Source: a virus (taxonomy: Duplodnaviria > Caudoviricetes). Taken from it: 52,490 bases of DNA. Location of the stretch: IMG/VR virus record IMGVR_UViG_3300036785_000427, positions 1-52,490 of that record, one strand, 5' to 3'. Both the position numbers and the translations under genes were made by a program. The notes under the pieces are model-generated. The model had not been told where the DNA came from, ran no database searches, and was given only the letters and a program-made list of their open reading frames with translations. Shown here piece after piece: positions 8,587 to 36,314 of the stretch (the stretch's first letter is position 1; every line of letters starts with the position of its first letter).

Positions 8587-8588
8587 TT

Positions 8589-9050: not shown

Positions 9051-9054
9051 GCTT

Positions 9055-18786: not shown

Positions 18787-20228
18787 TACGGTCCACCCTT
18801 CAATACCTGGACCGTACCATTTTCTGTATAGAAATAACTATATGGATCACCAAAAATAACCTGTGTTCCGAGAACTGGAGTCACGCCAATCCCATTTATA
18901 GTGATCACCCACTCTATATCTATAATATATTCTCCTATTAGAACTGTAGAAACTGCATCTAGAAAAACTTTATTCAGAACATTTAGATTGATCGGAGTTG
19001 TTCCTGCGGGTAATGAGTTAATATAGTCAACAATCTCTGGAACTGCTGCTTGAGCAATGGCGTCTGGTGATACAAAATTTGGTGAATCTGTTCGCCACGT
19101 TAGGACAATAGCAACTTGTTCTTGTGGTGGAATAACATATGGAATAAGATATGAATCTGGAAAATCAGCTATCGTGATATATGCATTAATTGGATTAGGA
19201 GTTATTGTTCCTCCATACGCATATGGTCCCCATGGTGTGCCATCGACATTGATTGTAAATACCTTATCTTTATTAGGATCAGAGTTATCAAGTCTAGTCA
19301 CTGTAACTTGTTGACCATTGATAAGACTCATTCCAACCACATCCACAATCGTTATAATATCCCCAGTCGAAAGATTATGATTATTGGCCGTGGTAATTCT
19401 TATAGGATTTGTATTAGTCATTCCATCAATTCGAATCGTGGCCCCAGAAAGACCAGGAACATAAAAATCTGATTGCCAGATGGCATAGGCAACTTGATAA
19501 GGATCACCTCCACCAACAATCACAACATATTGGTCACCCTCTGTTTGGACAGAAATCAGCCGGTTTTGAACACCAGGAATATTTCCCACTAATGTTTTCA
19601 GATATCTTCCCATTCCTGTAGACGCCGCAAGTCCCGCCGTAAAACATCTTTCACGAAAAATACTGATAGGTTCACCAGACATTGACGGGATACCGGCAAC
19701 AGGATTGGTGACAGTTAAGGGAATGCGAGCTGGGACAGAAGTTAGCATTTGAACAACTGTATTCGGTAAAACTTCCCATGAACCTGACACTGTAGCTAAG
19801 GCATAGATAGGAAGAGTATTCCCATCAAGACCACAAATCCCACCAGATTGACAAGTATACTGGTAAGTTCCATCACCAACAACAAATCCTTGAGCAAGAA
19901 CATAACCTGGAGGACCATTAAAAATTACATAGACTGAAGTATTTGTGATTGGTTGATGATCTACTCCATAGAGTATTCCAAGTTGGTTCAGTAGAAAAGC
20001 ATTCGCACCATACGGTGTAACCGAATTAACTAGATCTACAAGAAAACTATCACTCTCAACCAATGCAAATGTATCAGTGCTTGAAATATCCTCGATTAAA
20101 GAACCCGGCAGATTCGCAGTGTAGTCAGGATTGGTTGCTGCTACAAGCGCAATCAGCGCTGCCCGCAAATCTGCCGGAGCTGCCGGTTGAAGTCCTTGAT
20201 CAGTCATCACAAGTGGGAGAATAGCCAT
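18786..20228 (-). CDS. Baseplate J/gp47-like wedge protein
   Basis: N-terminal G.QP..P..LR..L, YTANLPGSLIEDI, DLVNSVTP; synteny. Confidence 0.8.
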   Translation of the reverse strand: MAILPLVMTDQGLQPAAPADLRAALIALVAATNPDYTANLPGSLIEDISSTDTFALVESDSFLVDLVNSVTPYGANAFLLNQLGILYGVDHQPITNTSVYVIFNGPPGYVLAQGFVVGDGTYQYTCQSGGICGLDGNTLPIYALATVSGSWEVLPNTVVQMLTSVPARIPLTVTNPVAGIPSMSGEPISIFRERCFTAGLAASTGMGRYLKTLVGNIPGVQNRLISVQTEGDQYVVIVGGGDPYQVAYAIWQSDFYVPGLSGATIRIDGMTNTNPIRITTANNHNLSTGDIITIVDVVGMSLINGQQVTVTRLDNSDPNKDKVFTINVDGTPWGPYAYGGTITPNPINAYITIADFPDSYLIPYVIPPQEQVAIVLTWRTDSPNFVSPDAIAQAAVPEIVDYINSLPAGTTPINLNVLNKVFLDAVSTVLIGEYIIDIEWVITINGIGVTPVLGTQVIFGDPYSYFYTENGTVQVLKGGP

Positions 20229-20645
20229 CTAGATTGGTTGCTCCGTAGGAAAGTCTGGTGCAACACGTACACCGATTCTAGCTCCATAATTTGTTAAGAC
20301 ATTGAGATAGTATCTAGGAGCAGGAGCTCCACCTTGTCCTGATGCGTAACTATCAGCGGTGCCTTGTTCTACCGGCAATGGAGTTAAGATCAATGATGCA
20401 AAATGGCCAGAAAATTGCTGCTGTGTTCGAGCCAGATAGAAATTAGGAAAAATCTGTGTCACGACAGACTCATGAGCTGGTATACCATAGTTAGCAAAAA
20501 AAGGGCTCTCACCCAAGTTTAATTTGCAAACTTGTGCAAGGTCTGTTAACCAGACTGAATCATTAAATCCATTGTAGTCGGTCGTAACGACCCACCATGT
20601 CTTCTTACCAGAACGAACGTCCTGAGTTCTACCGTAAGTTCTCAT
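20229..20645 (-). CDS. Baseplate/sheath initiator (gp25/W-like position)
   Basis: MRTYGR...LAQVCKLNLGESPFFANYGIP; lies between spike and J. Confidence 0.65.
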   Translation of the reverse strand: MRTYGRTQDVRSGKKTWWVVTTDYNGFNDSVWLTDLAQVCKLNLGESPFFANYGIPAHESVVTQIFPNFYLARTQQQFSGHFASLILTPLPVEQGTADSYASGQGGAPAPRYYLNVLTNYGARIGVRVAPDFPTEQPI

Positions 20646-21853
20646 CAGCCGATCTTTGCATACACGTTTGTACTTGGACCTTTTTGCGTCTGAACCAAAG
20701 CGAATTGGTCTTTTTGAGGATCACCACCTAAATAAACCTTTCCATCTTTAGGATTAATTATGATCACTTTCTGTCCACCTCCACCTGCACCTCCACCTGC
20801 ACCTCCACCTCCTAATGCACCACCTATCGCACTCCCTATCGCACCACCTATCGCACCTCCTGTTGAACCTCCTACTGCACCACCTATCGCACCTCCTATT
20901 GATCCTCCTAATCCACCACCACCCCCTCCACCACCCCCTCCACCAGCACCACCTCCACCAGCACCACCTTGTTGTTCCTTATCTTTAAGTTGGACATGTA
21001 TAGTTTGACTAGAATTAACAACTATGTCTTTATTCTTTGAACTTACAGTAATGTAATGATCATCATCCTTACTCTTCATCGTACACGTTCCGTCTTTATC
21101 AAAACTAATTTCTGTCTTATCCTTCTGTCCACCACCTCCTCCTAATGCGCCTCCTACTGCACTTATTACACCTCCTGCTGTACCTCCTACTGCACCTCCT
21201 ATTGCACCTATTATGCCTCCTAATGCACCACCACCTCCAGCCAATGGGGAAATAATAGGCCCTCCATTAGCTAAGATAGGTGACCTACGTTGCATTATCT
21301 GCAGATATAATCTTGCGGCTGGACTTGTACCACCTCCACCACCACTCCCGTTGCCACCACCACTCCCGTTGCCACCACCACTCCCGTTTTGACCACTCTG
21401 TTGTTCTTGCTGGTCCTCCATTACTTGAACTTTCCAGCCATTAGGACCACCAGTCTCGTGATGCTGGTCATAATCACGCGAGGGAGCATTCATATTACTA
21501 AGAGGCTGGTAAGTAAGAGTAGAAAGATTTCCACGTGGATAAAAGTTAGTTCTTCCTCCTGCAAAAGCTGTATTTCCTCCAAGGTAATAATTGCCGGGAA
21601 CAGCCATTCCCATATCACCAGCCTGAGTAGGTTCTCGACCAAATCTTGAAAATGACTGTGTCATTTTCATTACTGGTGGAGTAAAGATACTATTTGAAGT
21701 TTCAAATGCCATATGAGCAAAGTCTTTTTCCATTTTTTGAACGTGAGCCGGTATAGACTTTGCTTGCTGTTCCTGCTGATTATTACCTCTTCGACTATGC
21801 CACTTGTTCAGTGCATACTGGAACGGATTTTTATGTGCATCATATCTGCCCAT
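20645..21853 (-). CDS. Baseplate central spike protein with glycine-rich insertions
   Basis: OB-fold-like N-terminus (EPTQAGD.G, GNLSTL.Y.P), GPNG, C-terminal beta strands; synteny. Confidence 0.65.
   Translation of the reverse strand: MGRYDAHKNPFQYALNKWHSRRGNNQQEQQAKSIPAHVQKMEKDFAHMAFETSNSIFTPPVMKMTQSFSRFGREPTQAGDMGMAVPGNYYLGGNTAFAGGRTNFYPRGNLSTLTYQPLSNMNAPSRDYDQHHETGGPNGWKVQVMEDQQEQQSGQNGSGGGNGSGGGNGSGGGGGTSPAARLYLQIMQRRSPILANGGPIISPLAGGGGALGGIIGAIGGAVGGTAGGVISAVGGALGGGGGQKDKTEISFDKDGTCTMKSKDDDHYITVSSKNKDIVVNSSQTIHVQLKDKEQQGGAGGGGAGGGGGGGGGGGLGGSIGGAIGGAVGGSTGGAIGGAIGSAIGGALGGGGAGGGAGGGGQKVIIINPKDGKVYLGGDPQKDQFALVQTQKGPSTNVYAKIG
20775..21390 (-). repeat. Glycine-rich coding tandem repeats (GGA[I/V/L])n, (GGGNGS)n, poly-Gly
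   Basis: 12-bp GCACCACCTATC-type and 18-bp CCACCACTCCCGTTGCCA repeats on + strand. Confidence 0.85.
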
Positions 21854-21860
21854 TACATCC

Positions 21861-22382
21861 TCATGGATTTATTTCAAAAGCACCATTCCGGTACACCATT
21901 GTAGATCTTGTAAAGATCGTATCTACCATATTCAACAATCGACTAACTTTGCCTAGAACAACAACCATCCCTGGATCATGAGACATTGGAAATGAGAACA
22001 TAAGGTCATTAATGTGTAATGACCTAAACTTTCCATTATATGTAGGAGGTTGAAATCCTTCTAAGGTATAATCTATTATCGTACCGGGCTTAGTACCTGA
22101 TACAGAAATTGGAACTGGCCATAGACTTGGGTCTACAAGTTGCACGACTATAGAATTTAAGAAAGGATCATACACCGCACTTTGGACATTACGTGCAGGC
22201 GGACTAGAGAAAAGAGGGACAGTAATGATCCATGCTCCATCATGTTTTCTATAAATATTGATATAGTATCGTTGAGCTGAAACATTCCAAGTTATTCTAA
22301 CATCATGATCTACTCCATCCAATGTCGCAGGAATTGTAGGAGTTATTATATTTGAAGGAAGGAAAGGAATTATCGTGGTCAT
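21861..22382 (-). CDS. Small baseplate protein with inserted beta-domain
   Basis: TLDG......TWN...QRYYINIY motif; synteny. Confidence 0.65.
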   Translation of the reverse strand: MTTIIPFLPSNIITPTIPATLDGVDHDVRITWNVSAQRYYINIYRKHDGAWIITVPLFSSPPARNVQSAVYDPFLNSIVVQLVDPSLWPVPISVSGTKPGTIIDYTLEGFQPPTYNGKFRSLHINDLMFSFPMSHDPGMVVVLGKVSRLLNMVDTIFTRSTMVYRNGAFEINP

Positions 22383-23155
22383 TACGAAATACCACTGTAT
22401 GGAAAGTTTGAAGGATTAATATAAACCGGATAATTAGACATTGCTGGTGTTGATGGAGCTAATATAACAGAAGGAGTTCCAGCAGTAAGTCCTCCTACTA
22501 CTCTAACTGTTCTGGCTTGGGGGGCTTGTCCAGACTGCAATCCAGGACTAGTCCCAGACACACTCCCATCTGTCGGTAGTCCATTGGTTATTTTCTGTAG
22601 AAACTGATTCTGTGCACCTTGAAGTTCTGCAAGAGATACAAGTGGCTTTTCAAAATCAAATCTCCAAGCATTTTGTGGCAAAGAATTATTTCCTCGAGAA
22701 TTATCTGTTAACGCTACCATAATCAAATTATCGTACATATAAGCCGGAGTAGCGACAGTGTATGTACCTCCATCATTATTATGTTGATCAAGAGTTGCTT
22801 TCAATGCCGTGAACACACTCTGCTTAATTTGCCATGCATTTGGAGTTCGCATAGGTGCATCCATAATCACTGACAACGTAAGAGGTTCTCTGATCACAGC
22901 ATTAGCAGCAACACTTTGATTGGCAAACGGATACTTTCCTATTGTTTGAGAGACAAGATTCCCACCCGGTAAGATATTGAATGCTCCAAAAGCATCATCC
23001 AATTTGCCAATATCAAACGGCAGACCAAGATTATTGGTTTCTCCAGTTGCAAACAGACTTAGCATTGGTAACATACCGCCAGGAATCTGGCCAGCAACTC
23101 CACCAGTCAAAATAATTGGACAAACTTGATAAGATAGTTGAGCCTCAAAGGCCAT
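22382..23155 (-). CDS. Baseplate hub / tail tube initiator-like protein
   Basis: YPFANQSVAANAVI, LDQHNN.GGTY.VATPAY.Y, W.FDFEKPL; follows tape measure. Confidence 0.65.
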   Translation of the reverse strand: MAFEAQLSYQVCPIILTGGVAGQIPGGMLPMLSLFATGETNNLGLPFDIGKLDDAFGAFNILPGGNLVSQTIGKYPFANQSVAANAVIREPLTLSVIMDAPMRTPNAWQIKQSVFTALKATLDQHNNDGGTYTVATPAYMYDNLIMVALTDNSRGNNSLPQNAWRFDFEKPLVSLAELQGAQNQFLQKITNGLPTDGSVSGTSPGLQSGQAPQARTVRVVGGLTAGTPSVILAPSTPAMSNYPVYINPSNFPYSGIS

Positions 23156-25089
23156 TATCCCATTCCTGTTGCTGTTACATATGGATTAGAACCTGGAGTA
23201 TTACGTATTACTATTGAAGCTGTGCGATTAGATTGCCAATTGTTAGCATCTAATGGGCCTCCTCCTTTACCACCACCTCCTCCACCTCCTCCCGCACCTG
23301 TTCCATAGAATCCAAAAAGACCAGCCCATGTGGATCTTCCTTCTGGACTTGGAACCATTCCACCAGTTGCTCTTCCCCATGCACCAAGTTTATCAGCACC
23401 ACCTCCTGCTCCTGTCCCACCTACAAACATAGAACCTAGAGAATTTCCACCCATGAGAGAAAGATTACCCCCTGTTCCACCACCCATGAGAGAAAGATTA
23501 CCCCCTGTTCTACCACCCATGAGGGCAAGATTACCTCCCATTCCACTATTCATAAGGGAAAGATTACCTCCTCTCCCACCACCAGTAAGAGCAAGATTAT
23601 TACCTCCCACCCCACCACCAGTAAGAGCAAGATTATTACCTCCCACCATACCTCCAGTAAATTGCGATCTACCACCAACAGCCATATTAGAAAATTGATT
23701 AGTTCCTCCTATAGATCCTTGTGGACCTGGAGTAATCTGTAAAGGACGTATAGACGGAGATATTCTAGGAAACAGTCCTGGAATCGTTGGAGTTCCTGCT
23801 CCACCAGGAACTACTATAGGACCTGCTCCAGGAACTGGTGTCCCAGGAATTATAATATTTTGACCAGGAGTTGCTGGAACTCCTGGTGCACCAGGAGGCC
23901 CTCCTGCTGGTTGATTATTTCCTGTAAGTCCAGATATTCCTCTCCACAACATTCCTGCCGGGGTATATTTCCAAATAGTTTTCATAACATTCCATACTTT
24001 CCCCATAATATCCCCAACCCTTCTAGTAACTTCAACAAATCCAACTAAAGCATCTTTAAATTCCTTAAGCAAAGGAACCCATCCTTCGACAGTTTTACTG
24101 AATTTTTTCAGATCTTTTTCAAGCTGATTGCTTGCTAGATATTTACTTAATCGATTCAACCATGTTGTTAATTGCTTTACCATCCTTTCTACTATAGGCA
24201 TATTCATTAATGTTCTAACTAATTTCACAAGACTATTACTCAATTCACTAAGCGGTTTAGCAAGATCAGCTAATTTTTCACCAAATATACTTTCTATAGT
24301 AGTCTTAGCAGCCTTGAATTGCAGCTCTAAATCAGCCCATCCCTTTTGGGCTTTTTCGCTTAATTGCATCTCCTTTCCTTGTTGCTTTATCTTTTCTTCA
24401 AAATCTTTTAGTTCTTTGCGACTCATTGTTTTGAGTCGCATCATGTCCATATCGCTTAATCCTAAAGCACTACCGCCAAAAGCTCTTCCTACTGCCAATT
24501 CTGTACCGGGCGTTGCACCCTTTATCTTATCCTGTAATCTTTCTAAAATTTTAGGGAGAATATCCTCCGGCTTCATTTTAGTGCCAAATGGGATTCCTAA
24601 CGCCATGAGCGATCTTAATTGCTCTGGAGCTCCTCCTAATCCAGCTCGAATATTTTCAAGAGCACCTTGCGGAGAATCAAGAAATCCCCTACCAAATGTC
24701 GTTGCAGCTTGAGTTCTGCCGTAGTCACCTCCTAACCCTAACACCATCTTCCGTCTTTGTAGAATAGATGAAGCAAGTCTTTCTATACCAAACAATCCTC
24801 CCCCAAGACCTAGCATTGCTCCAATGCCACCGATAAGAGTAGACCATTTTATGAAATGTGTTGTGATACTTGCAACCGTAGTAGAAAGTGACTTAGTGGT
24901 TGACCACAAAGCTTTCATAGTAGAGGTAAGAGCATTAGATGCTGAAGTAGCTTTTTGGATATTTGCAGTAACTTGACTAAATTGTTGATTTAAACCTTTT
25001 ATTTGGGATGAAAAAGCATTGAATCTAGCAACAAATTGCTTGAACTGTGTATCATCTACTTTTACAGTAAGAGTAACTGATTTAGCCAT
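23155..25089 (-). CDS. Tape measure-like protein 2
   Basis: ~390-aa helical core with Gly-rich hydrophobic segment, Gly/Pro-rich linker, C-terminal IVIRNTPGSN. Confidence 0.7.
   Translation of the reverse strand: MAKSVTLTVKVDDTQFKQFVARFNAFSSQIKGLNQQFSQVTANIQKATSASNALTSTMKALWSTTKSLSTTVASITTHFIKWSTLIGGIGAMLGLGGGLFGIERLASSILQRRKMVLGLGGDYGRTQAATTFGRGFLDSPQGALENIRAGLGGAPEQLRSLMALGIPFGTKMKPEDILPKILERLQDKIKGATPGTELAVGRAFGGSALGLSDMDMMRLKTMSRKELKDFEEKIKQQGKEMQLSEKAQKGWADLELQFKAAKTTIESIFGEKLADLAKPLSELSNSLVKLVRTLMNMPIVERMVKQLTTWLNRLSKYLASNQLEKDLKKFSKTVEGWVPLLKEFKDALVGFVEVTRRVGDIMGKVWNVMKTIWKYTPAGMLWRGISGLTGNNQPAGGPPGAPGVPATPGQNIIIPGTPVPGAGPIVVPGGAGTPTIPGLFPRISPSIRPLQITPGPQGSIGGTNQFSNMAVGGRSQFTGGMVGGNNLALTGGGVGGNNLALTGGGRGGNLSLMNSGMGGNLALMGGRTGGNLSLMGGGTGGNLSLMGGNSLGSMFVGGTGAGGGADKLGAWGRATGGMVPSPEGRSTWAGLFGFYGTGAGGGGGGGGKGGGPLDANNWQSNRTASIVIRNTPGSNPYVTATGMG
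23440..23650 (-). repeat. 33-36 bp coding tandem repeat (GGN(N)L[AS]L[MT]GG..)
   Basis: About six imperfect copies, e.g. GAGAGAAAGATTACCCCCTGTTC repeated. Confidence 0.85.
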
Positions 25090-25091
25090 TG

Positions 25092-26498
25092 TTACTGACT
25101 TTGTACAGGGTCATTATTTGGATTCTGTACAACACTAGAATCTTGCACAGCATTTGATGTAGTACTTGGATCATCTGTACCGCCACCACCACTCCCGGGT
25201 TGTGCAAGACATTCAAAATTACTACTCCAACCAACACCATCCGGATTACGAAAATCACCAATGTGAAGAACTCTATATATTATGAATGTACCACTAAAAG
25301 AAGTATTTGTCTTCTGTTCAGGAGCAGTAGCTCCTGGAATTATAGCATTAGGTGTGAGACCTATAAGAGTTGGAGGTAATGTCACAGCCATCCCACAATG
25401 TAAATCCCCACGTAGAACAGTCTTAATACTTATCATATTGATATCTATCCACGTTGGCTGCCCAATAAGATCTACAGGAGCAATTACTCCTGCTCCTATA
25501 GAAGATGTGTCATCCCATACGTTGATAGTATTCGTATGTGCACTAAATTGAACACCGTGGTAATTCTTAATGCCATTGATAGACTGACTTAGTTTATTGA
25601 TATAACCAGCATATTGCTGAAGATTTTGATACATTCCAGCATCTTGGTATGGAAGTTTCAATGCACTTGAAATATTGACATTTGAAGCACCACTTGGAAA
25701 AGCTTTAGATAATGTGTCTTGAATAGCTCCTGATAGTGAATTATTCGGCAGTAAATTATGAATAAGATTTAACGGTGCCTGTAATCCATCAATACCACCA
25801 CCGAACAATGAACTAGCTAATCCACCAGCAAAAGTTGTTGCAGATCCAATAGCACCACTCCCTAATTGTCCAATATCTCCTATATCTGTGGGTGATACTA
25901 CAGGAGTATCTAATCCAAGAGGTGCTACTGCTCCACGTGCATATGGTCTACGATCAATAGATCGAAACCCAGTTCTCCTAACATGCATTCGCTGGCCACC
26001 ACCTCCCCCATTACCACCACCTCCGCCTTCTCCACCACCTCCACCCCCTCCACCCCCTCCACCCCCTCCACCACCATTACCTCCTCCACCCTCATCACCA
26101 CTGGAACTTGCTCCTGCAGGAACAAATGTCATGCCTATTGACATTTCAGTCCCAATCCAATTCCCCCAAGCCTTGATAATTTGTGCCTGCATCAATAAAC
26201 CAGCTTTAGGAGCTTGAGCAGTAGCAATCGGTAATCCTGGTCTCATCCCTCCTGTTATTATGATTGGTAATCCTATCAAGTACCCTGTATCTTTAATTTG
26301 TTGAAAAGTTACCCCATGAATAGTTAAAGTAGAATCTGAACTAGGAAGATTTGGTCTTAATTCTTCTATCTGAAATTCAACTTGCTGTGCCCCAGGATCA
26401 TAATGACCATTAAATTCTGTACCCCATTGTGCACCTCCATCATATCGAGGAGGAAATGATCCTGGTGCTCCTGCTATTACAATAGAGTAATATCTCAC
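25092..26498 (-). CDS. Baseplate hub protein (gp27/gp44-like)
   Basis: MRYY.I.I, GGM..GLP.A, AWGNWIGTE, DLIGQPTW, V.HIGDFR.PDG..W. Confidence 0.7.
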   Translation of the reverse strand: MRYYSIVIAGAPGSFPPRYDGGAQWGTEFNGHYDPGAQQVEFQIEELRPNLPSSDSTLTIHGVTFQQIKDTGYLIGLPIIITGGMRPGLPIATAQAPKAGLLMQAQIIKAWGNWIGTEMSIGMTFVPAGASSSGDEGGGGNGGGGGGGGGGGGGGGEGGGGGNGGGGGQRMHVRRTGFRSIDRRPYARGAVAPLGLDTPVVSPTDIGDIGQLGSGAIGSATTFAGGLASSLFGGGIDGLQAPLNLIHNLLPNNSLSGAIQDTLSKAFPSGASNVNISSALKLPYQDAGMYQNLQQYAGYINKLSQSINGIKNYHGVQFSAHTNTINVWDDTSSIGAGVIAPVDLIGQPTWIDINMISIKTVLRGDLHCGMAVTLPPTLIGLTPNAIIPGATAPEQKTNTSFSGTFIIYRVLHIGDFRNPDGVGWSSNFECLAQPGSGGGGTDDPSTTSNAVQDSSVVQNPNNDPVQSQ

Positions 26499-29400
26499 GG
26501 GCCACCTTCAGAACCTACGGAGCTATCTCCACCATCTCCACCCCCACTATCTCCTCCTCCACCACCTCCTCCACCATCATCTCCCTTACCTCCCCCACCT
26601 CCACCATCTCCACCCTTGTCTCCTCCATCTCCACCCTTTTCCTTATCTCCTCTTACCTTAATTTCTGGTAGTTCGGTAATCCCGGTATCCCCTCTACCAC
26701 CACCACCACCACGATCTCCCCCTGGACCAGTACCAGCCCCTTGGGCTCCAAGTTTACCTCTACTATCTGAACCTTGATATTCAACTGGTTTCTCTTTCCC
26801 ATCACCATGGGATGCTTCTGACGGACGACTATCCTCTCTCATATTAACATCCTGGTCAGAATGATTTCTTACGTTGAATGGTATCTGATTTTGTTGATCT
26901 TGGTCTAAATAATGAATAGGCTCTTGTGCCTGCATATGCGGCGGAGTATCCGGAGGTGTAGGCTGATTCCCTCGTGATGGAGGCCCAGGAGGAACCTTCG
27001 TATCCGGAGGTGTAGGAAATCCTTGCGTTGTTCCTGGTATGGGAGGTCCCCACGGAACAACCCAGTCTGGTAGTTTTGCTGGAGGTACTCCAGGAATTAG
27101 TGGAGGCGGTTTACCAAGAGGAATATTAGGAGGTATGGGTACAAATGTCCATCCAGGTGGAAATGGTGAACCAGGAAACCCAGGAGGAGGTATACCAGGA
27201 GGAAGTCGAGGAGGAAAAGGACCAGTAGGAGGAGTAGTAGGGGGAGGAGCACCAGGAGTAGGTATTCCTAATTTTGCATTAGTCTGAGGGCCAGCTACTC
27301 CATCAACAGTTAATTTATTATCAGATTGATATTTCTTTAAGGCATCTTCTGTCTCTTTTCCAAAGTCTCCATCAACTTTAACAGGATATCCAGCCTTTTT
27401 TAATGCTTCCTGGAGTTTTTTGACGTCTTCACCCTTATCATTTTTCTTCAATGGTCTTTGTTTGGGTGTTTCTTTTCCTTCTCCAGGTTTACTACCTCCT
27501 TGACCTCCATTATATTGTTTTGTCTTTTGATTATATTTTTTCCTCCACCATTCTATAAATTGTTCATTTGTTATATTATCAACTCCTCCCATTTTAGCTA
27601 ATTCATCAGCAGGTATATTCTTATAGACAGTTGCCTTACCCCAAGCTTCATTAGATGGATACCCATGAGTCCCAGGTTCTGCTTCAGCTAGAGCAGTCCA
27701 AGCTGGTCTATTTGGCTCAGCCTTATGTTTAGCGTATCCAGCCATACCTCTCTGATGAACCATATACATGTCAAAGGCAGTTGGTTCTTGTCCAGTCTTT
27801 TCCTTATATTTTTCCATTTCTGCTTTTAGTTTTTTAGCTCCAATCTTCATATTTTCTCCAGGATCAAAAATATTCTTCCCTCCTAATTGTTGAAATTCTT
27901 TATCTGATAACTGTAACAACCCCTTATACTTTCCAGTTGAATCGTTTGGATTTCCTCCGCTTTCTATTCCAACAAATGTCCTCAACATTTCTTCACTGAG
28001 ACCAGACTCTTCTGCAGCGGCTTTAATAGCTCGATCAACTTCTGGTTTAAATTGAGAACTTCCTCCAGCAGGAGTAGAAGTAGGACCAGTTCCAGGTTTG
28101 TGAGTTCCTGCCGTTCGTGCAGGTTGCCCACCTCTCGGTAGATTCTTTTTGTCCCATCCAAACTCTTTAACAGGATCCTTAACTACTTGTTGCCAACCTT
28201 TAGTGCCTCTAATAGGTGGTCCACTCCAACGTTCAAAATGCAAATGTTCAACACCATTAGCCGTTCCACTTTTTCCTATTTGTTGACCACCCTTAACACG
28301 ATCACCAATATTTCCAATACGTTCAGACAGATGCATAAAGGTAGAATACGTACCATCATCATGCTTAATAGTAGTTATCTTCGTACCAAAATTATCTGAA
28401 CCAAAACTATCGATTGTACCATCTAATGGAGAATAAACAGGGCTCCCTTTTGGAGCCATAATATCAATACCTTGATGTTGCCCTGCTCCTCTACTACTAC
28501 CACTTCCTACACCTCCTCCTAATGACGTTCCAGTAATAGGATCATAAAGTACTGGTTTATTAGGATCAGCAGGAGGAGTAACAGGAGGAGTAACAGGAGG
28601 AGGCTGGCCTTCAGGAGTACCAGGAGGAGCTTCTCTTCCAGGCATAGGTGCCCGTCGTCCTGGTCTTGAACCAGGAATAGGGCTTGGAGTACCAGGAATT
28701 CTAGGTGGAGCAGGGACTGGAGGAGGAGCTGGACGACCACCGGGGACTGGTTGTCCTACTGTTTTTCCTGCTGCTACCATATCACGTTGAAGTGCAGTCA
28801 ATCCTCCAGGATAAGCACTATCGATTAAAGATCTTGCAGTTCCTCCTAAAAGCCCTGCTTTTTGATCTATCATTTGAGAAATCGTAGTTTTACCACTCAA
28901 GAGATCAGCCTTCTCTTGAGGTGTCATCTTATCAATATAACTTTGAGCTTGTGTTCTATATCGTTCTGGAAGTTTCTTTAATACAGAACTAAGTGCTTGA
29001 TCTGGAGTAACTGTAGAAACAGGTGGAGCAGGTGGAGCAGGTGGAGCAGGTGGAGCAGTAGGCCCTATCGGAACACGTCGTCCTGGCACAGTGCCAGGAA
29101 TCCTAGGAGCAGCAGAAGGCCTAGGAGTAAATGGCGGATATAAAGCTTTAAGTTCTTCACCTTTCAAATGAGTCAATTTTAAGCTGCTGAGAGCATTGTT
29201 TTGTGTTATCCATTTCTGTATTTCTGGTGGATAATCTTTCATCATTTGTTGATTAGTAATTGGATCCATAGTAGGAACAGGTTTTCCATTTACATCCTTA
29301 AAATAAAATGATGAATGAAATCCCAAGTCAGCAGCATCAGTAGTAAAGAGACGTTCTTTAGGGATAAATGATGTTGCAAAAGTACCAGCAGAATCAAGAT

Positions 29401-31882
29401 GTCCACCAAGAACTACATTTGCTTTAGTATCAGCTAATTGTTTATAAAAATTTTGGAAACTAGGGACGATACCACCTGGAGAATCTAAAATCGTATAAGT
29501 ATTTTGCGGTGCATTTATTTTGACATCATAATAACTTTGATTAGGAAGAGAGGGTGGACGAGGCATATGTAAAGAATGTATCTGTTCTGCTGGATTAAAC
29601 GCAGCCGGATCATATGCTGGCTGAGCACTGGGATCAATAATATCTTTAGTAGGAAACTCCTGATGAGGAATAGAGGGTTGTTGCGAAGGAATTGGTCCTC
29701 GATGCCACGGTCTCTGAAGTGGGTCACCACGCTGAGGTATTCCAGTTGGTCTAGGTTGCTGAGAAGGCAATGGTCCTCGATGCCACGGTCTCTGAAGCTG
29801 ACCTTGTACACCAGCACGCTGAGGTATCCTAGATGGAGCAGGAGGAGCAAATCTACCCTGTGGTGTTGGTCTAGGCTGTGGTGAAGGTCTAGTTGGCCCA
29901 GTTGGATGAGTTGGTACACCTGATGGTAATCCCGGTATAGTTGATGGAGGTCCTCCTGGTATTCTAGGAGGAACTGGCGCAGCACCAGGAGCTCTAGGAA
30001 TTCCAGGAGCACCAGTACCTGGAGGAGCACCAGGAACACCGGGACCTATACCAGGAATACCACTAGGAGGAGGGGGAGGAGCAGTAGGGTCAGTAGGATT
30101 TACTACTATAGGACCTATTTCAACACCACCTGTAGATGGAGGAGCACCAGTAGTTCCAGGAAATCCAGGAGAACCAGGAATACCTGGAGTCTTAGGAGCA
30201 CTAGGAACACCAGTACCAGGAACACTAGGAGCGCCAGATCTTCCTGGCATTCCAGGAGTACGAGGGGGAGCAGGAGAAGGAGCAGGAGAAGGAGTAGGGG
30301 AAGGAGTAGGGGAAGGAGCACCAGGAGGTCCAGGACGGCTTCCTGGACCTAAACCACCTCCTGGACCTAAACGACCTCCTGGACCTAAACGACCTCCAGG
30401 TCCTACACGACCTCCAGGTCCTACACGACCTCCAGGTCCTACACGACCTTCCAACCCTGTACGACCTCCAAGTCTCCTATTAAAAATACCAGGAACATCA
30501 GAAACATCTGGAGAAACAGAAACACTAGGAGGAAAATCTTCCCCAGTTCTAGTAGGTGCTCCTGATGGGGCTGATATCCGCGGACTAGGACCAGTAATTC
30601 CTGGTACTCTAGGAGAAGGTCGGATTACTGGCTGGCCAGCTTGAGCTCTACCAGCTTGGACTTGGGCATCAGAAAGTTCCTTTGCAGAAGCTGCAGAGAT
30701 AAAATCAAATTGCTTTCCAAACCAGATTACTGTATCTCTTGCGTCTATTAAAATCTTAATTATACTCTTTATTTCTTTTATAGAGTCATTTATCCCTTCT
30801 ATAGGCTTTTCAGATTTTAACCACTCTCCAAGTGCAGTTAAATTAGTCTCAATTGAACTAATCATTTTTTGTGAAAAAGGCAATTCTAAAAATGTCTTCA
30901 CAAATTTTATAATCGCCTTACTTAATTCAGTAAGTGCTTTCACAAAGTTTGAATTAGGATCAGCCAATTTTTCAGCAATAATATTTGTGATCTGGATTCC
31001 TGCCTTTTTAACTTGGATAACAAACTCTTTCCAGCCCTCAATAGCCTTTCCTGATATTTCAAACATTCCCTTATGTTTTTCATAAAGCTTTGCTTTCTCC
31101 CTCAAATCTTCTTCACTTATATTCTTTAGACCAATCAAAAACTGCGGGCTGAAAAGCGCAGTCAAACCAAACTTTTCAGCCATAAATAACTCTGTTCCCT
31201 GTTTCTGAGATTTCATAAACTTTTGCGCAGCTAACATCATTTCAACAGCTAAATCAGCAGAATTTTTTATATTTTGAACTCCCAAAATCTGCATAGCAAG
31301 ATATTGCCGGGATGTTCTATTTGCTTGAGCTCGCATCACATTAGGCAATATATTAGGATCATCTGGCAATCCAGCAAATGTAGTACGAAGTGCTCGAACA
31401 CCACCTACTGTAGATAGAGTCCCAGACGCAAGAAGCCAGTCCTGGAGCATAGAATCCCCAAGACCGACCATCGCATCCCACAACCATTTTGCTAATCCAG
31501 CCCCACCAATGACTAGATTAAATGCAGTTTTTGCTGTAAAAACAACACCGGCTATCGCAAAACCAACAGGACCAAATCTCGCAGCTAAGGCTTCAAAAGA
31601 CATACTCTTCATAAATGCTTTGCCGAAACTTCCCATCGAATTAAGTATTCGATCGATTTCTCGCTGGAAAGTTCTAGAAAGCTTCGCAAATAATTGAGCA
31701 GTGTGCTTGAGTTTGGTCGCAACTCCAGATTGAGCAACCTGAGCTTTTGCTAACTGTACATGAGGAACATTTTGATAAACTTGTTGTGCTTGAACCTGAA
31801 ATTTCTGCACATTTGCCATAAACGTGTTCATGGCATTCAAAAAATCTGGCGATATTGGGATTACAATCTGGGGATCAGCCAT
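26495..31882 (-). CDS. Tape measure-like protein 1 with ClpP-like, M23 peptidase, lysozyme-like and PG-binding domains
   Basis: Follows tail chaperone; helical N-terminus; DSPGG..SA..LGFH; HQGID...HLHFE; IESGGNP..GLLQ; VDGDFGKETEDALKKYQ; Pro-rich linkers. Confidence 0.8.
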   Translation of the reverse strand: MADPQIVIPISPDFLNAMNTFMANVQKFQVQAQQVYQNVPHVQLAKAQVAQSGVATKLKHTAQLFAKLSRTFQREIDRILNSMGSFGKAFMKSMSFEALAARFGPVGFAIAGVVFTAKTAFNLVIGGAGLAKWLWDAMVGLGDSMLQDWLLASGTLSTVGGVRALRTTFAGLPDDPNILPNVMRAQANRTSRQYLAMQILGVQNIKNSADLAVEMMLAAQKFMKSQKQGTELFMAEKFGLTALFSPQFLIGLKNISEEDLREKAKLYEKHKGMFEISGKAIEGWKEFVIQVKKAGIQITNIIAEKLADPNSNFVKALTELSKAIIKFVKTFLELPFSQKMISSIETNLTALGEWLKSEKPIEGINDSIKEIKSIIKILIDARDTVIWFGKQFDFISAASAKELSDAQVQAGRAQAGQPVIRPSPRVPGITGPSPRISAPSGAPTRTGEDFPPSVSVSPDVSDVPGIFNRRLGGRTGLEGRVGPGGRVGPGGRVGPGGRLGPGGRLGPGGGLGPGSRPGPPGAPSPTPSPTPSPAPSPAPPRTPGMPGRSGAPSVPGTGVPSAPKTPGIPGSPGFPGTTGAPPSTGGVEIGPIVVNPTDPTAPPPPPSGIPGIGPGVPGAPPGTGAPGIPRAPGAAPVPPRIPGGPPSTIPGLPSGVPTHPTGPTRPSPQPRPTPQGRFAPPAPSRIPQRAGVQGQLQRPWHRGPLPSQQPRPTGIPQRGDPLQRPWHRGPIPSQQPSIPHQEFPTKDIIDPSAQPAYDPAAFNPAEQIHSLHMPRPPSLPNQSYYDVKINAPQNTYTILDSPGGIVPSFQNFYKQLADTKANVVLGGHLDSAGTFATSFIPKERLFTTDAADLGFHSSFYFKDVNGKPVPTMDPITNQQMMKDYPPEIQKWITQNNALSSLKLTHLKGEELKALYPPFTPRPSAAPRIPGTVPGRRVPIGPTAPPAPPAPPAPPVSTVTPDQALSSVLKKLPERYRTQAQSYIDKMTPQEKADLLSGKTTISQMIDQKAGLLGGTARSLIDSAYPGGLTALQRDMVAAGKTVGQPVPGGRPAPPPVPAPPRIPGTPSPIPGSRPGRRAPMPGREAPPGTPEGQPPPVTPPVTPPADPNKPVLYDPITGTSLGGGVGSGSSRGAGQHQGIDIMAPKGSPVYSPLDGTIDSFGSDNFGTKITTIKHDDGTYSTFMHLSERIGNIGDRVKGGQQIGKSGTANGVEHLHFERWSGPPIRGTKGWQQVVKDPVKEFGWDKKNLPRGGQPARTAGTHKPGTGPTSTPAGGSSQFKPEVDRAIKAAAEESGLSEEMLRTFVGIESGGNPNDSTGKYKGLLQLSDKEFQQLGGKNIFDPGENMKIGAKKLKAEMEKYKEKTGQEPTAFDMYMVHQRGMAGYAKHKAEPNRPAWTALAEAEPGTHGYPSNEAWGKATVYKNIPADELAKMGGVDNITNEQFIEWWRKKYNQKTKQYNGGQGGSKPGEGKETPKQRPLKKNDKGEDVKKLQEALKKAGYPVKVDGDFGKETEDALKKYQSDNKLTVDGVAGPQTNAKLGIPTPGAPPPTTPPTGPFPPRLPPGIPPPGFPGSPFPPGWTFVPIPPNIPLGKPPPLIPGVPPAKLPDWVVPWGPPIPGTTQGFPTPPDTKVPPGPPSRGNQPTPPDTPPHMQAQEPIHYLDQDQQNQIPFNVRNHSDQDVNMREDSRPSEASHGDGKEKPVEYQGSDSRGKLGAQGAGTGPGGDRGGGGGRGDTGITELPEIKVRGDKEKGGDGGDKGGDGGGGGGKGDDGGGGGGGGDSGGGDGGDSSVGSEGGP
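30342..30467 (-). repeat. 18-bp coding tandem repeat (GR[V/L]GPG) about 7 copies
   Basis: CCTGGACCTAAACGACCT / CCAGGTCCTACACGACCT units. Confidence 0.9.
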
Positions 31883-32185
31883 CTAAGCCTTCCACATTGC
31901 AATCATATATCGCTGCTGCCACTGGAGTCGAGTTCCATGTGGCCAAGCTAATTCAAACTGATCAAAAAAGTCGCTAAACCCTTCGTCGGTCAACCAAGAC
32001 ATACAAGATTGAACTATTGATTCACTACCATTGGCTTCTCGCCAATACTCTCTTCCACTGTCGAGGTCGGCAAGGAACGCATATATTCCGTAACATTCAA
32101 TAAGGTAGTTTGCGCGTTCCAAAGAGTGTTCAAGCCTTCCGTCGCCACCGCCAACTCCGCCTTTAAGTGAATTGACGAGGCGCAT
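31883..32185 (-). CDS. Possible tail chaperone extension (gpT-like) in -1 frame
   Basis: Overlaps the chaperone in -1 frame and ends directly at the tape measure start; true start unknown. Confidence 0.45.
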   Translation of the reverse strand: MRLVNSLKGGVGGGDGRLEHSLERANYLIECYGIYAFLADLDSGREYWREANGSESIVQSCMSWLTDEGFSDFFDQFELAWPHGTRLQWQQRYMIAMWKA

Positions 32186-32600: not shown

Positions 32601-33041
32601 TTAAGTTCCGAAGAATCCTGTGTTGACATTGTAATAGCCACGAGCTGTGACTACCATTGCTGCTTCCATTCCTGCAAATGCCATTTCTCGGACACTTTCC
32701 AGTGCCACGTTATTAATAATGTATGGATTCAATACGTCTGTATCTGGTATAATAGAAGTAAGCCCAATAAGAGTTGTATCCTCAAATTGGAGCTTGTAAA
32801 GAGACGCAAGCACAGAACTGCGCACAATCGACATCGTGATTGACGCAGCAAGATATGGTGCTGGACTACTGACCAAGCTGACCATTGCCGGAAGCAGGTC
32901 TGTTGCATTTCCTTCCAACGCGAGGCGAATACCCTCCGTTGTAAGAAAATTGCTTGTGACATTTAGTTCAGGAAAGTCAGCAAAAATTACCGAGGCCCGG
33001 AGCCGATTCAGGACGCCGGGAGGAGTGAACTGAAAGGCCAT
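32601..33041 (-). CDS. Tail tube protein
   Basis: 146 aa, directly after sheath; G.LNRLRASV, V.SPAPY, RGYY.VN. Confidence 0.75.
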   Translation of the reverse strand: MAFQFTPPGVLNRLRASVIFADFPELNVTSNFLTTEGIRLALEGNATDLLPAMVSLVSSPAPYLAASITMSIVRSSVLASLYKLQFEDTTLIGLTSIIPDTDVLNPYIINNVALESVREMAFAGMEAAMVVTARGYYNVNTGFFGT

Positions 33042-33052: not shown

Positions 33053-34684
33053 CTAGAGTGAAACAAGGTCGGTTGCAACCACATTCACAAGGATATGAAT
33101 GAAGCCACGCGCAGGGATGAACAGGGTTGACAACCCGTCATATTCTCCAATCTTATAATCTCCCGGGTTGGCCAGAGTATAGTTTAAGAACGGAACGGCA
33201 TTGACATTGCACTTTCCAGCAAACTGGCCTCCATTAATAGCCGCAGAAAGATCTGGACCATCGTAACCTGTCATTTCGATCTTTCCCAGAACCATGCCAA
33301 AGGTTGAAGCACTCTGCATAGTGTGGAAAAGAACAGTTTCTAGGTAGTTGATTCCATCCTGATTATAGTACAACGGTGCAAGTGGATTGTTGGAACCATT
33401 AATGATAGCATTGCTGAGATTCAGGTTAACCTCAATCTGGATCCAATCGATTGTATACCACCAGTTGAAGTAGTCATGCCCATCGAGCGTAACTCCTTCA
33501 TAAACCATGGTGAAACTGATACCACCCTCTGCTCCGGTAGAAACATAGTTCGTGTTTGCAGACTTAAAGTTTCGAAGCAACGGACCATGATTCTTTTGCG
33601 GGTACTCCGTCACTCCAAAGAGGAACTTAAACGCCATTGGTGAAACACGATTCGTGTTTGATGGTCGATAGGCCAAGGCATTATAGAACATCGCTGCCAG
33701 AGTAAATTCACCACCTGGATCAATAAAATTTTGAATTAACCATTCTGCTGGAACAGTACCTTCAGCAGGAGCAAAGATTAAGGTCGGATCCTGCAAAGCA
33801 GGTGCTTCAACCATTTGGATCACATCCTTGAAGGATGATCCAGTGCCTTTGGTTCCACCAGAACCCAATTGACCTGGGAAGAATAGATTCATATATGATT
33901 GCAAAGGCCATTCTTTACTATTTCCATCGGCTACAGTCAGCCAGAAATACTCCATCGTATTAGATGGAGCCTCATACTGTTTCAACAGATTTGTGAGTGG
34001 GAGAGGGAGAGCAGCAGTACCAAGAATACTTGGATCACAACCAAATTTACGTGGAAACAGGAATGCATAGATAGTTAATGGATTATTGGCCAGCCAATTT
34101 GCAAGAGCTGCGACGTTATTGGCTGGATTTGCATCCCAACCAAGTTCCAGAACCCACACTCCAACTTCATTTCCTTGGCCAAAGAAAGAATTTGCCATCT
34201 GCTGCAATTCAATAGTATTATGAAGTGTCACTGTTCCCATCGGTGCAGTAGCCGTTCCCGGGCTAACAGCAACAGGATACGTAAATACGTCCGCACTTAT
34301 AAGAGTAGCATTGTAGAGACCATTATAACCCGGACCAATAGGAGTGAACCCGGACATAACAACTGGGAATAAATCTCCAGTCTTAACTCCTGGAATAGCT
34401 GTTGGACAGGTAACAGTCACTACTCCTGCTGCCCATACTACAGAAGTGACTGCCAACGGAACATGGAGTAGTGGAGGTCCCGCCGGATTGTCAACCGTAG
34501 GCACAAACAAATCTGACAATTGTGTCAGTAAGTTCGTGTCACCAACATTCGTGGTGGTCGCCCCAAAGGACAAGAAGCATCCGGTCCGCTGATAGTTGAT
34601 AGGGGTTGGAGCCTCAATGATTGAAACGTGGACCGTTACAATCGCATTCGGATCCGTACTAAATTGAGTCTGAACACCAGTCAT
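33053..34684 (-). CDS. Tail sheath protein
   Basis: 543 aa; NYV.TGAEGG, FNWWY.IDW.Q, NAIINGSN....LYYNQDGI. Confidence 0.85.
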   Translation of the reverse strand: MTGVQTQFSTDPNAIVTVHVSIIEAPTPINYQRTGCFLSFGATTTNVGDTNLLTQLSDLFVPTVDNPAGPPLLHVPLAVTSVVWAAGVVTVTCPTAIPGVKTGDLFPVVMSGFTPIGPGYNGLYNATLISADVFTYPVAVSPGTATAPMGTVTLHNTIELQQMANSFFGQGNEVGVWVLELGWDANPANNVAALANWLANNPLTIYAFLFPRKFGCDPSILGTAALPLPLTNLLKQYEAPSNTMEYFWLTVADGNSKEWPLQSYMNLFFPGQLGSGGTKGTGSSFKDVIQMVEAPALQDPTLIFAPAEGTVPAEWLIQNFIDPGGEFTLAAMFYNALAYRPSNTNRVSPMAFKFLFGVTEYPQKNHGPLLRNFKSANTNYVSTGAEGGISFTMVYEGVTLDGHDYFNWWYTIDWIQIEVNLNLSNAIINGSNNPLAPLYYNQDGINYLETVLFHTMQSASTFGMVLGKIEMTGYDGPDLSAAINGGQFAGKCNVNAVPFLNYTLANPGDYKIGEYDGLSTLFIPARGFIHILVNVVATDLVSL

Positions 34685-34714: not shown

Positions 34715-34981
34715 TTACTTGGATTTCTTGTTGCGTTTATGATGAGGTACTGACTCAGATTCAGCCTCTTCCCCATTCCCAGGATTTCCAGAATTTTCCT
34801 CAGCTTCAGCCGCAGGCATTAACTCCTGTGCCATCTGAATCGTTGCTGTAAACGGAACAGTTTTGTTCGGCACATCTCCAGCACCAACAGCAGATAAAAC
34901 AGTCACTCCTCCTGGTTTCTGCGCTTTAGCAAGAATAGGATATTCAGCCGTGTAGACTGGCAGATATGTTGTCTGTGGCAT
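34715..34981 (-). CDS. Hypothetical protein
   Basis: Fills the gap between neck gene and sheath on the operon strand. Confidence 0.5.
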   Translation of the reverse strand: MPQTTYLPVYTAEYPILAKAQKPGGVTVLSAVGAGDVPNKTVPFTATIQMAQELMPAAEAEENSGNPGNGEEAESESVPHHKRNKKSK

Positions 34982-36314
34982 GGGGCGTCACCTGTGATGG
35001 AGGGTCTGTGAACCAAGATGGATCGTAAAACTGAACTCTGGCATGAAGAATAAACTGTCTAGCAATATCCCTAGAAACAGTTTGTAGATAATTAACCTCA
35101 TACTCTATTGATTTATATTGAGAAATTGTCTTTGTTTCTGATGAAGTCTGCTTCTCATCATAAGGAACAGGACTATTGGCAAATCCAAGAGTCATCCAGT
35201 CTCGAGAATAATTTTCTACACAAATCATAAAGTCACTAACATCTTCAGCATCTAATCCATACAAATGGATCTTAACTTTATCCCTACATAGATAAGCAGT
35301 CTGTGTCCTAGAACCCATATATGGGATCATCGCCAATGGTTTTGTCTCTTCAATATGCACAGCACCGAACGGGGGAGGTAGATTATCATCTACTAGATAA
35401 GATGGATATAGAGGAAATGGACAATTAAAAGTAGGATAAGGAGGGACATAATTCGCCAGACTAAGCCAAATAGGTAAAGAATTAGAAGGAATAACAGTGG
35501 GCTCAAATTGACTAGGATCACTAATTATCTGAGTTGCATGAGTTGATTTAACTGCTACCCCCTGATAGTGATAAAGATCAGCTTGCTCATACAACCGACC
35601 ACGACTACTGAAAGCAAATAATAGACTTCCATACGTTCCAATATACAGATTATTTGGACCTATTATATTGAATGCCTGTATTTCTGACAACGAAGTAAAT
35701 ACAATCTCATTAGAATCTACGGTTGCATCTTCGCGTTGTTCACTAACTGATGCATAATGAAAAGAGCCTTGAACCTCCATATCAGTTGGTAAAGTAACAG
35801 ATGGTAATGAAGCATACAAGATACACGAAAATTTATGACCATCACTAGGAGAAGTAACCCATGCTCCATTTGAATTATTAGCCGGAATATCTACACTTTC
35901 TCCTGGCTGAAGTACATTTGTCGTAGAAGTTACATAGGAATAGGAAGGACCAGTAAAATCATAAAATAATGGTTCTGCCACACTAAGCCCTTGATCTGCT
36001 GCTAGAAGAGGATTAATTATCTTACCTCCTACAATCCTGTTTGCACCCCAGAAACTACCAGGAGAAACCTGAGTAGCAGCACCACCATCATCTGTTATTA
36101 TAGCCATTCCTTGCATTGGTTGGATACCAGGAGTAGTAATCGGATTCGCACTTGAAGGCACTTTTATCCAATAAACCATGCCGTCGAGAGGAAAAACATA
36201 ACGCTGATAAAGTGAAAAAGCGATTATCTGGTCCATCGACAGGGTCTTAACCCCTGCCGCAAGCGCTGCACCAAGAGGAGGTTTAGAATTAAGGGCGTCT
36301 GTTACAGAAGCCAT
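34944..36314 (-). CDS. Neck / tail completion protein with inserted accessory domain
   Basis: TAATG-coupled start; Y.RYVFPLDG.VYW, GSFHY, SNSLPIWL, YPSYLV..NL.PP; synteny. Confidence 0.65.
   Translation of the reverse strand: MASVTDALNSKPPLGAALAAGVKTLSMDQIIAFSLYQRYVFPLDGMVYWIKVPSSANPITTPGIQPMQGMAIITDDGGAATQVSPGSFWGANRIVGGKIINPLLAADQGLSVAEPLFYDFTGPSYSYVTSTTNVLQPGESVDIPANNSNGAWVTSPSDGHKFSCILYASLPSVTLPTDMEVQGSFHYASVSEQREDATVDSNEIVFTSLSEIQAFNIIGPNNLYIGTYGSLLFAFSSRGRLYEQADLYHYQGVAVKSTHATQIISDPSQFEPTVIPSNSLPIWLSLANYVPPYPTFNCPFPLYPSYLVDDNLPPPFGAVHIEETKPLAMIPYMGSRTQTAYLCRDKVKIHLYGLDAEDVSDFMICVENYSRDWMTLGFANSPVPYDEKQTSSETKTISQYKSIEYEVNYLQTVSRDIARQFILHARVQFYDPSWFTDPPSQVTPHATDNISASLHG

Follow-up and report, generated by a model that had tools for sequence, protein, structure and literature searches.

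Two tape-measure paralogs flank the baseplate hub gene in a viral record of the class Caudoviricetes

The tape measure of a tailed phage is usually viewed as one protein encoded by one gene and serving as ruler, plug, membrane channel and sometimes lysin, and single tape measures with lysin domains are already known. The stretch of DNA analysed here, referred to below as the window, is the viral record IMGVR_UViG_3300036785_000427 (Duplodnaviria; 52,490 nt, linear, 68% complete by estimate), whose structural operon lies on the minus strand and includes two tape-measure-like genes, encoding proteins of 644 and 1795 amino acids (aa; the small and the big paralog), with the gene of the baseplate hub between them. 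Among the described systems, the accessible part of the report on cyanophage Pam3 gives the order sheath, tube, tape measure, tube initiator gp17, plug gp18, hub gp19, spike gp20, sheath initiator and wedge, together with a tape measure of 588 aa in a tail of 840 Å, described as a six-fold helical bundle (PMC9942802). The tape measure of phage phiTE, according to the accessible part of its description, has six-fold symmetry along the tube but three-fold symmetry within the hub, for which the authors invoke proteolytic cleavage (PMC11972413).

Comparison of the small paralog with 50,697 phage records by tblastn gave matches in 10 records, in one place each and with 24-27% identity over the core. 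These are five Yersinia phages of the vB_YenM type, Klebsiella phages Chronis, RothC and RothD, and Pantoea phage PdC23 (two records). E-values range from 1e-11 to 9e-18 for PdC23 and the vB_YenM phages, and the places matched in PdC23, RothC and RothD (E 1e-11 to 6e-13) are genes annotated as (tail length) tape measures. The capsid protein of the window retrieves the same phages with 58-60% identity. Their annotated gene order, taken here as that of an outgroup, is sheath, tube, chaperone, a tape measure of 546-606 aa, then proteins of 237-241, 87-91 and 315-341 aa, a “puncturing protein”, a small protein and baseplate J. A tblastn map identifies the protein of 315-341 aa as the window hub's ortholog; it sits between the plug-like and spike genes, immediately upstream of the ortholog of the 402-aa protein of the window, while the ortholog of the 257-aa protein comes directly after the single tape measure.

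Homology of the two tape-measure-like proteins and the gene between them

The 644-aa and 1795-aa proteins are paralogs, as had been claimed in a preliminary description of this DNA made from the letters alone. BLASTP aligns residues 82-322 of the small protein with residues 121-359 of the big one (68/245 identical, E 2e-19), and tblastn with the small paralog on its own record retrieves the big one. The profile alignment of the cores which that description had proposed as a check was performed with an alignment of 24 small-type proteins (A1) and another of 8 big-type sequences, that of the window among them and the others taken from loci related to it (A2). It led to a hhalign probability of 99.96 and an E-value of 9.1e-39 over 345 aligned columns, spanning residues 1-357 of the small and 1-392 of the big protein. 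The homology of the shared helical core was thus confirmed, its size of ~350 aa from residue 1 being somewhat under the ~400 aa first put forward. Both proteins match phrog_7694 (small, E 2.3e-34; big, E 1.4e-11), and so do the tape measures of PdC23 (E 1.6e-126) and the vB_YenM phages (E 3.7e-183); weak matches to named tape-measure PHROGs were also obtained (E 0.004-0.007).

A long, mainly helical region with a hydrophobic segment is predicted in both paralogs, the hydrophobic windows lying at ~84 in the small and at 96-113 in the big protein. In the former the segment is Gly-rich and covers residues ~84-103, and the AlphaFold2 (AF2) model is helical over residues 13-386, at a mean predicted local distance difference test (pLDDT) score of 49 and with confident positions only at ~140-235. 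In the latter the hydrophobic stretch extends over residues ~96-131, and 43 columns are invariant among 8 sequences over the ~390-aa core, which is conserved as a whole, N-terminal helix and hydrophobic segment included.

When 1.84 billion cluster representatives were searched with a big-core profile, 1353 of them matched at E <= 0.001; among the 150 representatives listed, 42 are of 853-1975 aa and 89 of 500-849 aa. A hidden Markov model (HMM) of the near-invariant small-type C-terminus recovers all 14 small copies (E 1e-17 to 3e-26) and matched zero big copies, even at E 10. Big-type proteins have a C-proximal motif of their own, in its fuller form H-P-I-D-x-V-K-V-x-N-H/R-S-D-x-D-V, which is followed by a Gly/Asp-rich tail of ~115 aa. 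It was found by regular expression in 8/9 big copies of the window and the related loci, with a variant in locus L006, and in 18 of 36 long database representatives, a further 9 of which have variants recognised by eye and 9 none. A late (I/V)RN motif had been proposed as a second element common to the paralogs. Its letters are indeed present in both (the small protein has IRN at residues 628-630, the big one VRN at 1671-1673), but a likeness above chance was not borne out by the HMM, nor by hhalign of the two motif alignments, which in the proposed register gave E 0.23 and a probability of 0.3. Small-type and outgroup C-termini align in register with E 0.0013 and a probability of 18, the outgroup single tape measures terminating in V-x-I-x-N-N-T-G-G-N-A. 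Some distant big-type variants (I-I-N-N-S-T, I-K-N-N-S-D) appear intermediate, and a common origin of the small, big and single end motifs is plausible. The regular expression for the small/single-type motif, found in 17/89 mid-length database representatives, is too narrow for a census.

Judging by these sequence comparisons, the single tape measure is more closely related to the small copy than to the big one, in the core as well as at the C-terminus. Small copies are 543-651 aa long versus 506-606 aa for the single outgroup tape measures; tblastn with the big copy at 1e-4 did not find the tape measures of PdC23 and the vB_YenM phages.

The gene between the paralogs was correctly taken for that of the hub in the preliminary description. 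Its 468-aa product matches phrog_196 (“baseplate hub”, E 1e-13), lies among baseplate genes and was modelled by AF2 from a 12-sequence alignment with a predicted template modelling score of 0.62. When the model was compared with the Protein Data Bank (PDB) by Foldseek, the best matches were the hub chains of phiTE, E217, Pa193 and Bas63 (target-normalised TM scores of 0.65-0.69 for the best four), followed by the extracellular contractile injection systems (eCIS), VgrG, pyocin R2, T4 gp27, Pam3 (7yfz) and Mu gp44. For the chains of phiTE, E217, Pa193, pyocin R2, T4 gp27 and Mu gp44 the E-values extend from 1.6e-11 (phiTE, 9cuy_X) to 1e-5, and the top matches are all hub or VgrG chains; the model thus identifies the protein as a baseplate hub of the gp27/gpD-type fold. 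Solved structures were also searched at the sequence level; the queries (hub, small-type profile, 257-aa protein, and residues 760-1125 of the big paralog) returned low-complexity or coiled-coil noise, or nothing.

A poly-Gly insert of the hub, at residues ~129-241, was modelled at a pLDDT of ~30. Gly-rich expansions are common to this insert, to the Gly/Asp tail of the big copy (26495-26640) and to the small copy, with its 11-residue repeats (23260-23931), and all three stretches are encoded by short DNA tandem repeats, those of the small copy being 33/36-nt units at 23447-23660.

The GTG start of the hub gene and the stop of the big paralog overlap by 4 nt, the small paralog begins 2 nt past the hub stop, and its own stop overlaps the following start, that of the 257-aa protein, by 1 nt. 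Since the junctions amount to overlaps or gaps of 4, 2 and 1 nt, the three genes are tightly coupled in translation.

Conservation of the arrangement and history of the duplication

A survey of relatives for the duplication had been suggested in the preliminary description. Viral contigs were scanned with the hub, A1 and the big-core alignment, which yielded 16 loci, and the arrangement was found in 9/9 loci with full coverage (L006, L009, L010, L012, L013, L014, L015, L017 and L027, of which L014 and L015 are near-identical): chaperone, big copy, hub, small copy and then the 257-, 173- and 402-aa proteins. L016 begins inside the big copy, with the motif present, and continues with the hub and small genes; in L005, L007, L008 and L011 the contig ends upstream of the hub, and hub followed by small copy is seen. 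L018 and L019 have a single tape measure and a hub that comes after the plug-like gene, as in L001 and L002, the four forming a single-copy outgroup. L021 has a hub gene that is broken by an open reading frame (ORF) of 354 aa. A further small-type homolog, P0015 (57% identical), lies on a 52-kb contig labelled at NCBI as a metagenome-assembled genome (MAG) of Nitrososphaera sp.; because the clade carries peptidoglycan hydrolases, the contig is probably that of a phage and was placed in an archaeal bin.

A maximum-likelihood tree, obtained in a quick run with LG+G4 on 389 columns of 20 cores, places the small (9), big (8) and single (3) proteins each on one side of a branch, with support of 96, 100 and 100 in the Shimodaira-Hasegawa-like approximate likelihood ratio test (SH-aLRT). 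Branching is the same within the small and the big group: the window pairs with L006, then come L017 and a group of L009, L010, L012 and L014, with L013 outside. Mirrored in this way, the core phylogenies of the small and big copies point to one old duplication followed by co-divergence. The window and L006 share 41% identity in the big and 55% in the small copy, and big copies evolve faster.

The duplication may have proceeded as a tandem doubling of the block of tape measure, initiator, plug and hub, with subsequent loss of the first initiator-plug pair and of the second hub. This route would give exactly the observed order, although other routes could have led there too. A doubled hub in the present-day operon was considered and rejected, since the 402-aa protein shows no relationship to the 468-aa hub (BLASTP E 0.079, over Gly-rich residues), which indicates a hub relocated, not doubled.

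One more single-copy locus, L020, is a prophage-like remnant in an alphaproteobacterial MAG (Rhodopila), in which the hub is directly upstream of a single tape measure. The region 8546-11410 of this locus comprises terminase, head protein, hub and the tape measure, to which a lysozyme-like domain belongs; neither a sheath nor a tube match was found nearby. A 557-aa ORF upstream of the hub was rejected as a second tape measure, being unrelated to the tape measure of this locus and without a PHROG match.

Of the single tape measures examined, at least 4/5 have a transglycosylase C-terminal to the core. Pfam detects SLT in L019, L001 and L002 match phrog_873/7182, and L020 does likewise; the transglycosylase PHROGs matched by PdC23, the vB_YenM phages and L020 are those of an endolysin or a “tail injection transglycosylase”. 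In the cut copy of the L018 tape measure a transglycosylase was not seen with Pfam. The site of the outgroup transglycosylase is occupied in the small paralog by its Gly-rich region, and Pfam and PHROG scans found no enzyme domain in this protein.

Enzymatic load of the big paralog and the proposed division of labour

The description of the long paralog as an enzyme carrier with long low-complexity tethers holds: M23, SLT and PG_binding_1 domains follow the core (Table 1) and are set apart by stretches of 45-70% Pro+Gly, and orthologs carry other hydrolases. The M23 domain retains its metal motifs, H-x3-D at residue 1136 and H-x-H at 1213. In the SLT domain there are two candidate catalytic Glu-Ser pairs, at residues 1292 and 1307. 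Residues ~780-910 match phrog_19619, a family of unknown function, and in the ESM Atlas only unnamed viral clusters were found for them, at 0.76-0.82, which is under a useful score. Altogether, Pro/Gly-rich linkers and globular enzyme domains account for over half of the big copy.

The load varies between relatives. Pfam finds M15_4 in L010, M23 with M15_4 in L013, and Phage_lysozyme2 with SLT and M15_4 in L014, and among 36 long database representatives M23, Phage_lysozyme2 and Amidase_2 occur in 6 each, M15_4 in 4 and SLT in 3. The length of the big copy ranges from 902 to 1795 aa in otherwise similar loci and doubles among close relatives. Elsewhere in the window, a separate 766-aa protein combines Amidase_3 with PG_binding_1 and is a plausible lysis enzyme; since it could serve lysis, the hydrolases of the big copy are best read as entry enzymes. 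The 766-aa protein is large for an endolysin, and its gene is located in a region of raised G+C (0.53 vs ~0.42).

We lean, if only slightly, towards the reading that both products are tail proteins derived from a tape measure, the small copy acting as the ruler and docking in the hub, and the big copy being loaded through its core and delivering wall-degrading enzymes at contraction. The ancestor would have been a minimal, Pam3-like myophage tail module with one tape measure, as still seen in PdC23, the vB_YenM phages and two viral contigs, in the order chaperone, tape measure of 506-606 aa, initiator-position gene, plug-like gene, hub and spike. Its tape measure presumably combined a helical core, a hydrophobic segment and a short C-terminal docking motif, with a C-terminal transglycosylase as in at least four of the five single proteins examined. 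After the single old duplication the two copies would have split the work. The small copy would have lost the enzyme; it keeps the canonical C-terminus and would dock in the hub and set the tail length like the ancestral protein. The big copy keeps the core and the hydrophobic segment, has a C-proximal motif of its own and has become a modular carrier of hydrolases on Pro/Gly-rich tethers; it would be loaded via the tape-measure core by the same chaperone and released at contraction, opening the peptidoglycan for the tube.

Several observations weigh against this division of labour or against parts of its history. No Pfam family was found at E <= 1e-3 in the big copies of L006, L009 and L012, and no enzyme PHROG at 1e-4 in those of L006, L009, L012 and L017 (the last on PHROGs alone). 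An isolate of the two-copy clade was not found among the 50,697 phage records, and 185,579 species genomes gave only two distant prophage-like matches, in alphaproteobacterial MAGs. The root of the three-group tree is assumed, and the tree does not decide whether the big and small groups are sisters. In L020 the hub stands beside a single tape measure, and its move may therefore not be tied to the duplication. The range of big-copy lengths fits a cargo carrier, but tails of differing length would be an alternative cause.

Gene position counts in the same direction. It is the big copy that occupies the canonical place of a tape measure, directly 3′ of the chaperone pair, and not the small one, which follows the hub; in the outgroup phages the nearest homolog of the small copy does occupy the post-chaperone position. 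The big copy could accordingly be the only true tape measure, a chaperone-bound ruler, with the small copy performing another job near the hub, such as that of a plug or of a membrane-inserting pore former released at ejection. The hydrophobic segment kept in both copies and the translational coupling of the small gene to the hub gene would agree with this. However, it is the small copy that resembles the single outgroup tape measure in core, C-terminus and length, while linkers and enzyme domains, which make up most of the big protein, are unlike a ruler helix, and a doubling of length among close relatives speaks against a ruler as well. We consider this explanation unlikely.

The space available in the tube was estimated roughly, assuming 1.5 Å per residue and a lumen which we take to be 35-40 Å wide. 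If the small copy sets the tail length here, three big and three small chains of full length would take up 0.80-1.05 of the lumen, compared with 0.56-0.73 in L010 and 0.44-0.58 in Pam3, so that equal loading of the full-length big protein is improbable in this phage. Such a result, in disfavouring several full-length big copies in a short tail, would suit an arrangement in which only the small copy is in the tube lumen, and the big one is a virion-associated lysin held at another site (the cavity of hub or spike, the neck, the head) or in few copies, its core being an assembly handle. A variable, modular cargo and a big-type motif unlike the small-type one, suggesting a different docking site, are in line with it. 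Conservation of the whole ~390-aa core, in contrast, is more than a handle seems to need, and the big gene adjoins the chaperone in 9/9 complete loci; this explanation seems rather unlikely.

The same estimate counts against the simplest form of a more far-reaching reading, related to the hetero-oligomeric ruler or ejection conduit suggested in the preliminary description, namely that a mixed six-chain tape measure of both paralogs resolves the mismatch between a six-fold tube lumen and a three-fold hub. Homologous cores would form the six-fold bundle along the tube, as in Pam3 and phiTE, and only three small-type chains would dock their canonical C-termini in the trimeric hub, while three big-type chains (or fewer, or processed ones) would terminate in enzyme cargo that is free and is the first to be shot into the cell wall. 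Two genes would then hard-wire what proteolysis is proposed to do in single-gene phages, and the hub gene might lie between the copies for coupled synthesis and assembly. This possibility is to be regarded as distinctly doubtful.

Low-complexity expansions and tandem repeats in both genes could also raise the suspicion that one copy is a redundant duplicate being lost, or that the pair is an artefact of contig assembly; nothing else was found in favour of it. Both ORFs are intact in 9 contigs and the window, 10 in all, the phylogenies are mirrored, the end motifs are conserved and public data hold dozens of diverged long representatives. An explanation of this kind is hardly credible.

Neighbouring genes and comparison with described tails

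The features of the window are collected in Table 1.

Table 1. Coordinates of the tail genes, protein domains and other features in the window
Feature	Position	Strand	Basis
Portal	43716-45233	-	
Major capsid	39003-40025	-	
Sheath	33053-34684	-	
Tube	32601-33041	-	
Tail assembly chaperone, 190 aa	32014-32586	-	phrog_11810, E 9.8e-43; between tube gene and tape-measure position
Overlapping ORF, 100 aa, -1 frame relative to chaperone	31883-32185	-	ORF list; offset from coordinates
Big tape-measure paralog, 1795 aa, 188.5 kDa	26495-31882	-	single open frame; canonical post-chaperone position
Big paralog core, residues 1-392	30707-31882	-	hhalign, BLASTP
Peptidase M23 (predicted), residues 1135-1219	28226-28480	-	Pfam PF01551, 66.8 bits vs cut-off 28.7
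SLT lytic transglycosylase (predicted), residues 1285-1363	27794-28030	-	Pfam PF01464, 26.3 bits vs cut-off 21.3
PG_binding_1, residues 1484-1538	27269-27433	-	Pfam PF01471, 66.4 bits vs cut-off 23
Big-type C-proximal motif, residues 1669-1680	26843-26878	-	hydrophobic-x-V-x-N-H/R-S-D-x-D-V
Baseplate hub, 468 aa	25092-26498	-	phrog_196, AF2 model, Foldseek vs PDB
Small tape-measure paralog, 644 aa, 66.7 kDa	23155-25089	-	
Small paralog core, residues 1-357	24019-25089	-	hhalign
Small paralog Gly-rich low-complexity region, residues ~387-610	23260-23931	-	P+G fraction 0.3-0.47
Small-type C-terminal motif NWQ-x-NRTA-x-L-V-V-R-N-V-P-G-S-N ..., residues 612-644	23158-23256	-	near-invariant in A1
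257-aa protein, tube-initiator position	22382-23155	-	phrog_7750, E 3.3e-54; synteny
173-aa protein, plug-like	21861-22382	-	phrog_8737; position; weak N-terminal likeness to Pam3 gp18 plug
402-aa protein, spike position	20645-21853	-	tblastn match to PdC23 “puncturing protein” gene
257-, 173-, 402- and 138-aa proteins together	20229-23155	-	
Baseplate-J-like wedge protein	18786-20228	-	
766-aa protein, Amidase_3 and PG_binding_1	9459-11759	-	

The chaperone gene and the 100-aa ORF overlap by 172 nt. In related loci their products are 68-83% and 68-84% identical to those of the window, respectively, and the stop of the ORF abuts the ATG start of the big paralog. Given the conservation of the pair, the 100-aa ORF is likely to be the extension of a G/GT-type programmed frameshift product; reading of the overlap sequence did not reveal a clear slippery heptamer. 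The 257-aa protein would be a tube initiator by analogy with the Pam3 gene order only. The 173-aa protein matches Pfam PF22479 (Pam3 gp18 plug) with E 0.0044, under the Pfam cut-off, and its C-terminal half resembles a segment inside the sheath genes of relatives, as seen from a tblastn cross-match.

Further from the paralogs, a 1375-aa ORF two genes upstream of the portal (45580-49707, minus strand) matched no PHROG or Pfam family. Two adjacent genes of the minus strand, 41755-42879 and 40726-41706, match the N- and C-terminal halves of phrog_6216, respectively, the first having a NUDIX domain; the PdC23 counterpart is a single 553-aa “nudix hydrolase”, and the gene may have been split in this record. 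A 467-aa and a 522-aa protein (34944-36347 and 17218-18786, minus strand) have an N-terminal domain in common according to a tblastn cross-match.

Phrase searches of the literature, with most subscription journals outside their scope, did not find paralogous tape measures flanking a hub; the matches for two-tape-measure phrases concerned chaperone pairs, proteomic listings and unrelated fields. What appears new here is a conserved pair of tape-measure paralogs around the hub, with the enzyme load cleanly split from the canonical end. In a lineage with dozens of diverged metagenome members the roles of the tape measure appear to be divided between paralogs that share a core, so that nature itself offers a dissection of what each part of a tape measure is needed for. 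The lineage would also provide concrete material for the question of how many tape-measure chains a tail holds, six along its tube versus three in the hub, and the varying hydrolase sets of the big copy constitute a collection of entry enzymes mounted on a scaffold that appears to be portable.

Compared with described phages, the nearest likeness is to the single tape measures of phrog_7694 in PdC23 (Certevirus), the vB_YenM phages, Chronis, RothC and RothD, which have a homologous helical core with a hydrophobic segment. Their neighbours are shared too, the chaperone upstream and the phrog_7750 protein downstream, and their C-terminal motif is in register with that of the small copy. These phages differ in having one gene, with the enzyme and the docking end on the same protein, and a hub that follows the plug-like gene. 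T5 pb2 is reportedly a multifunctional tape measure with an M23-type peptidoglycan hydrolase and hydrophobic membrane-insertion segments; in a protein of this type one chain does all, whereas here the enzyme load is found on a dedicated paralog with several hydrolases. As far as the accessible part of its description goes, Pam3 has the same gene order as the outgroup phages and a tape measure of similar length, the tape measures being compared by position and length, and it differs from the clade of the window in having one tape measure. The 173-aa protein is linked to its gp18 by the weak Pfam match, and the window hub model matches the Pam3 baseplate entry 7yfz. Meanwhile phiTE, a 142-kb phage which is otherwise unrelated and has one tape-measure gene in the part of the report available, supplies with 9cuy_X the best match of the window hub model (E 1.6e-11), and its six-to-three mismatch would explain in structural terms how tape-measure chains of two kinds might share one tail.

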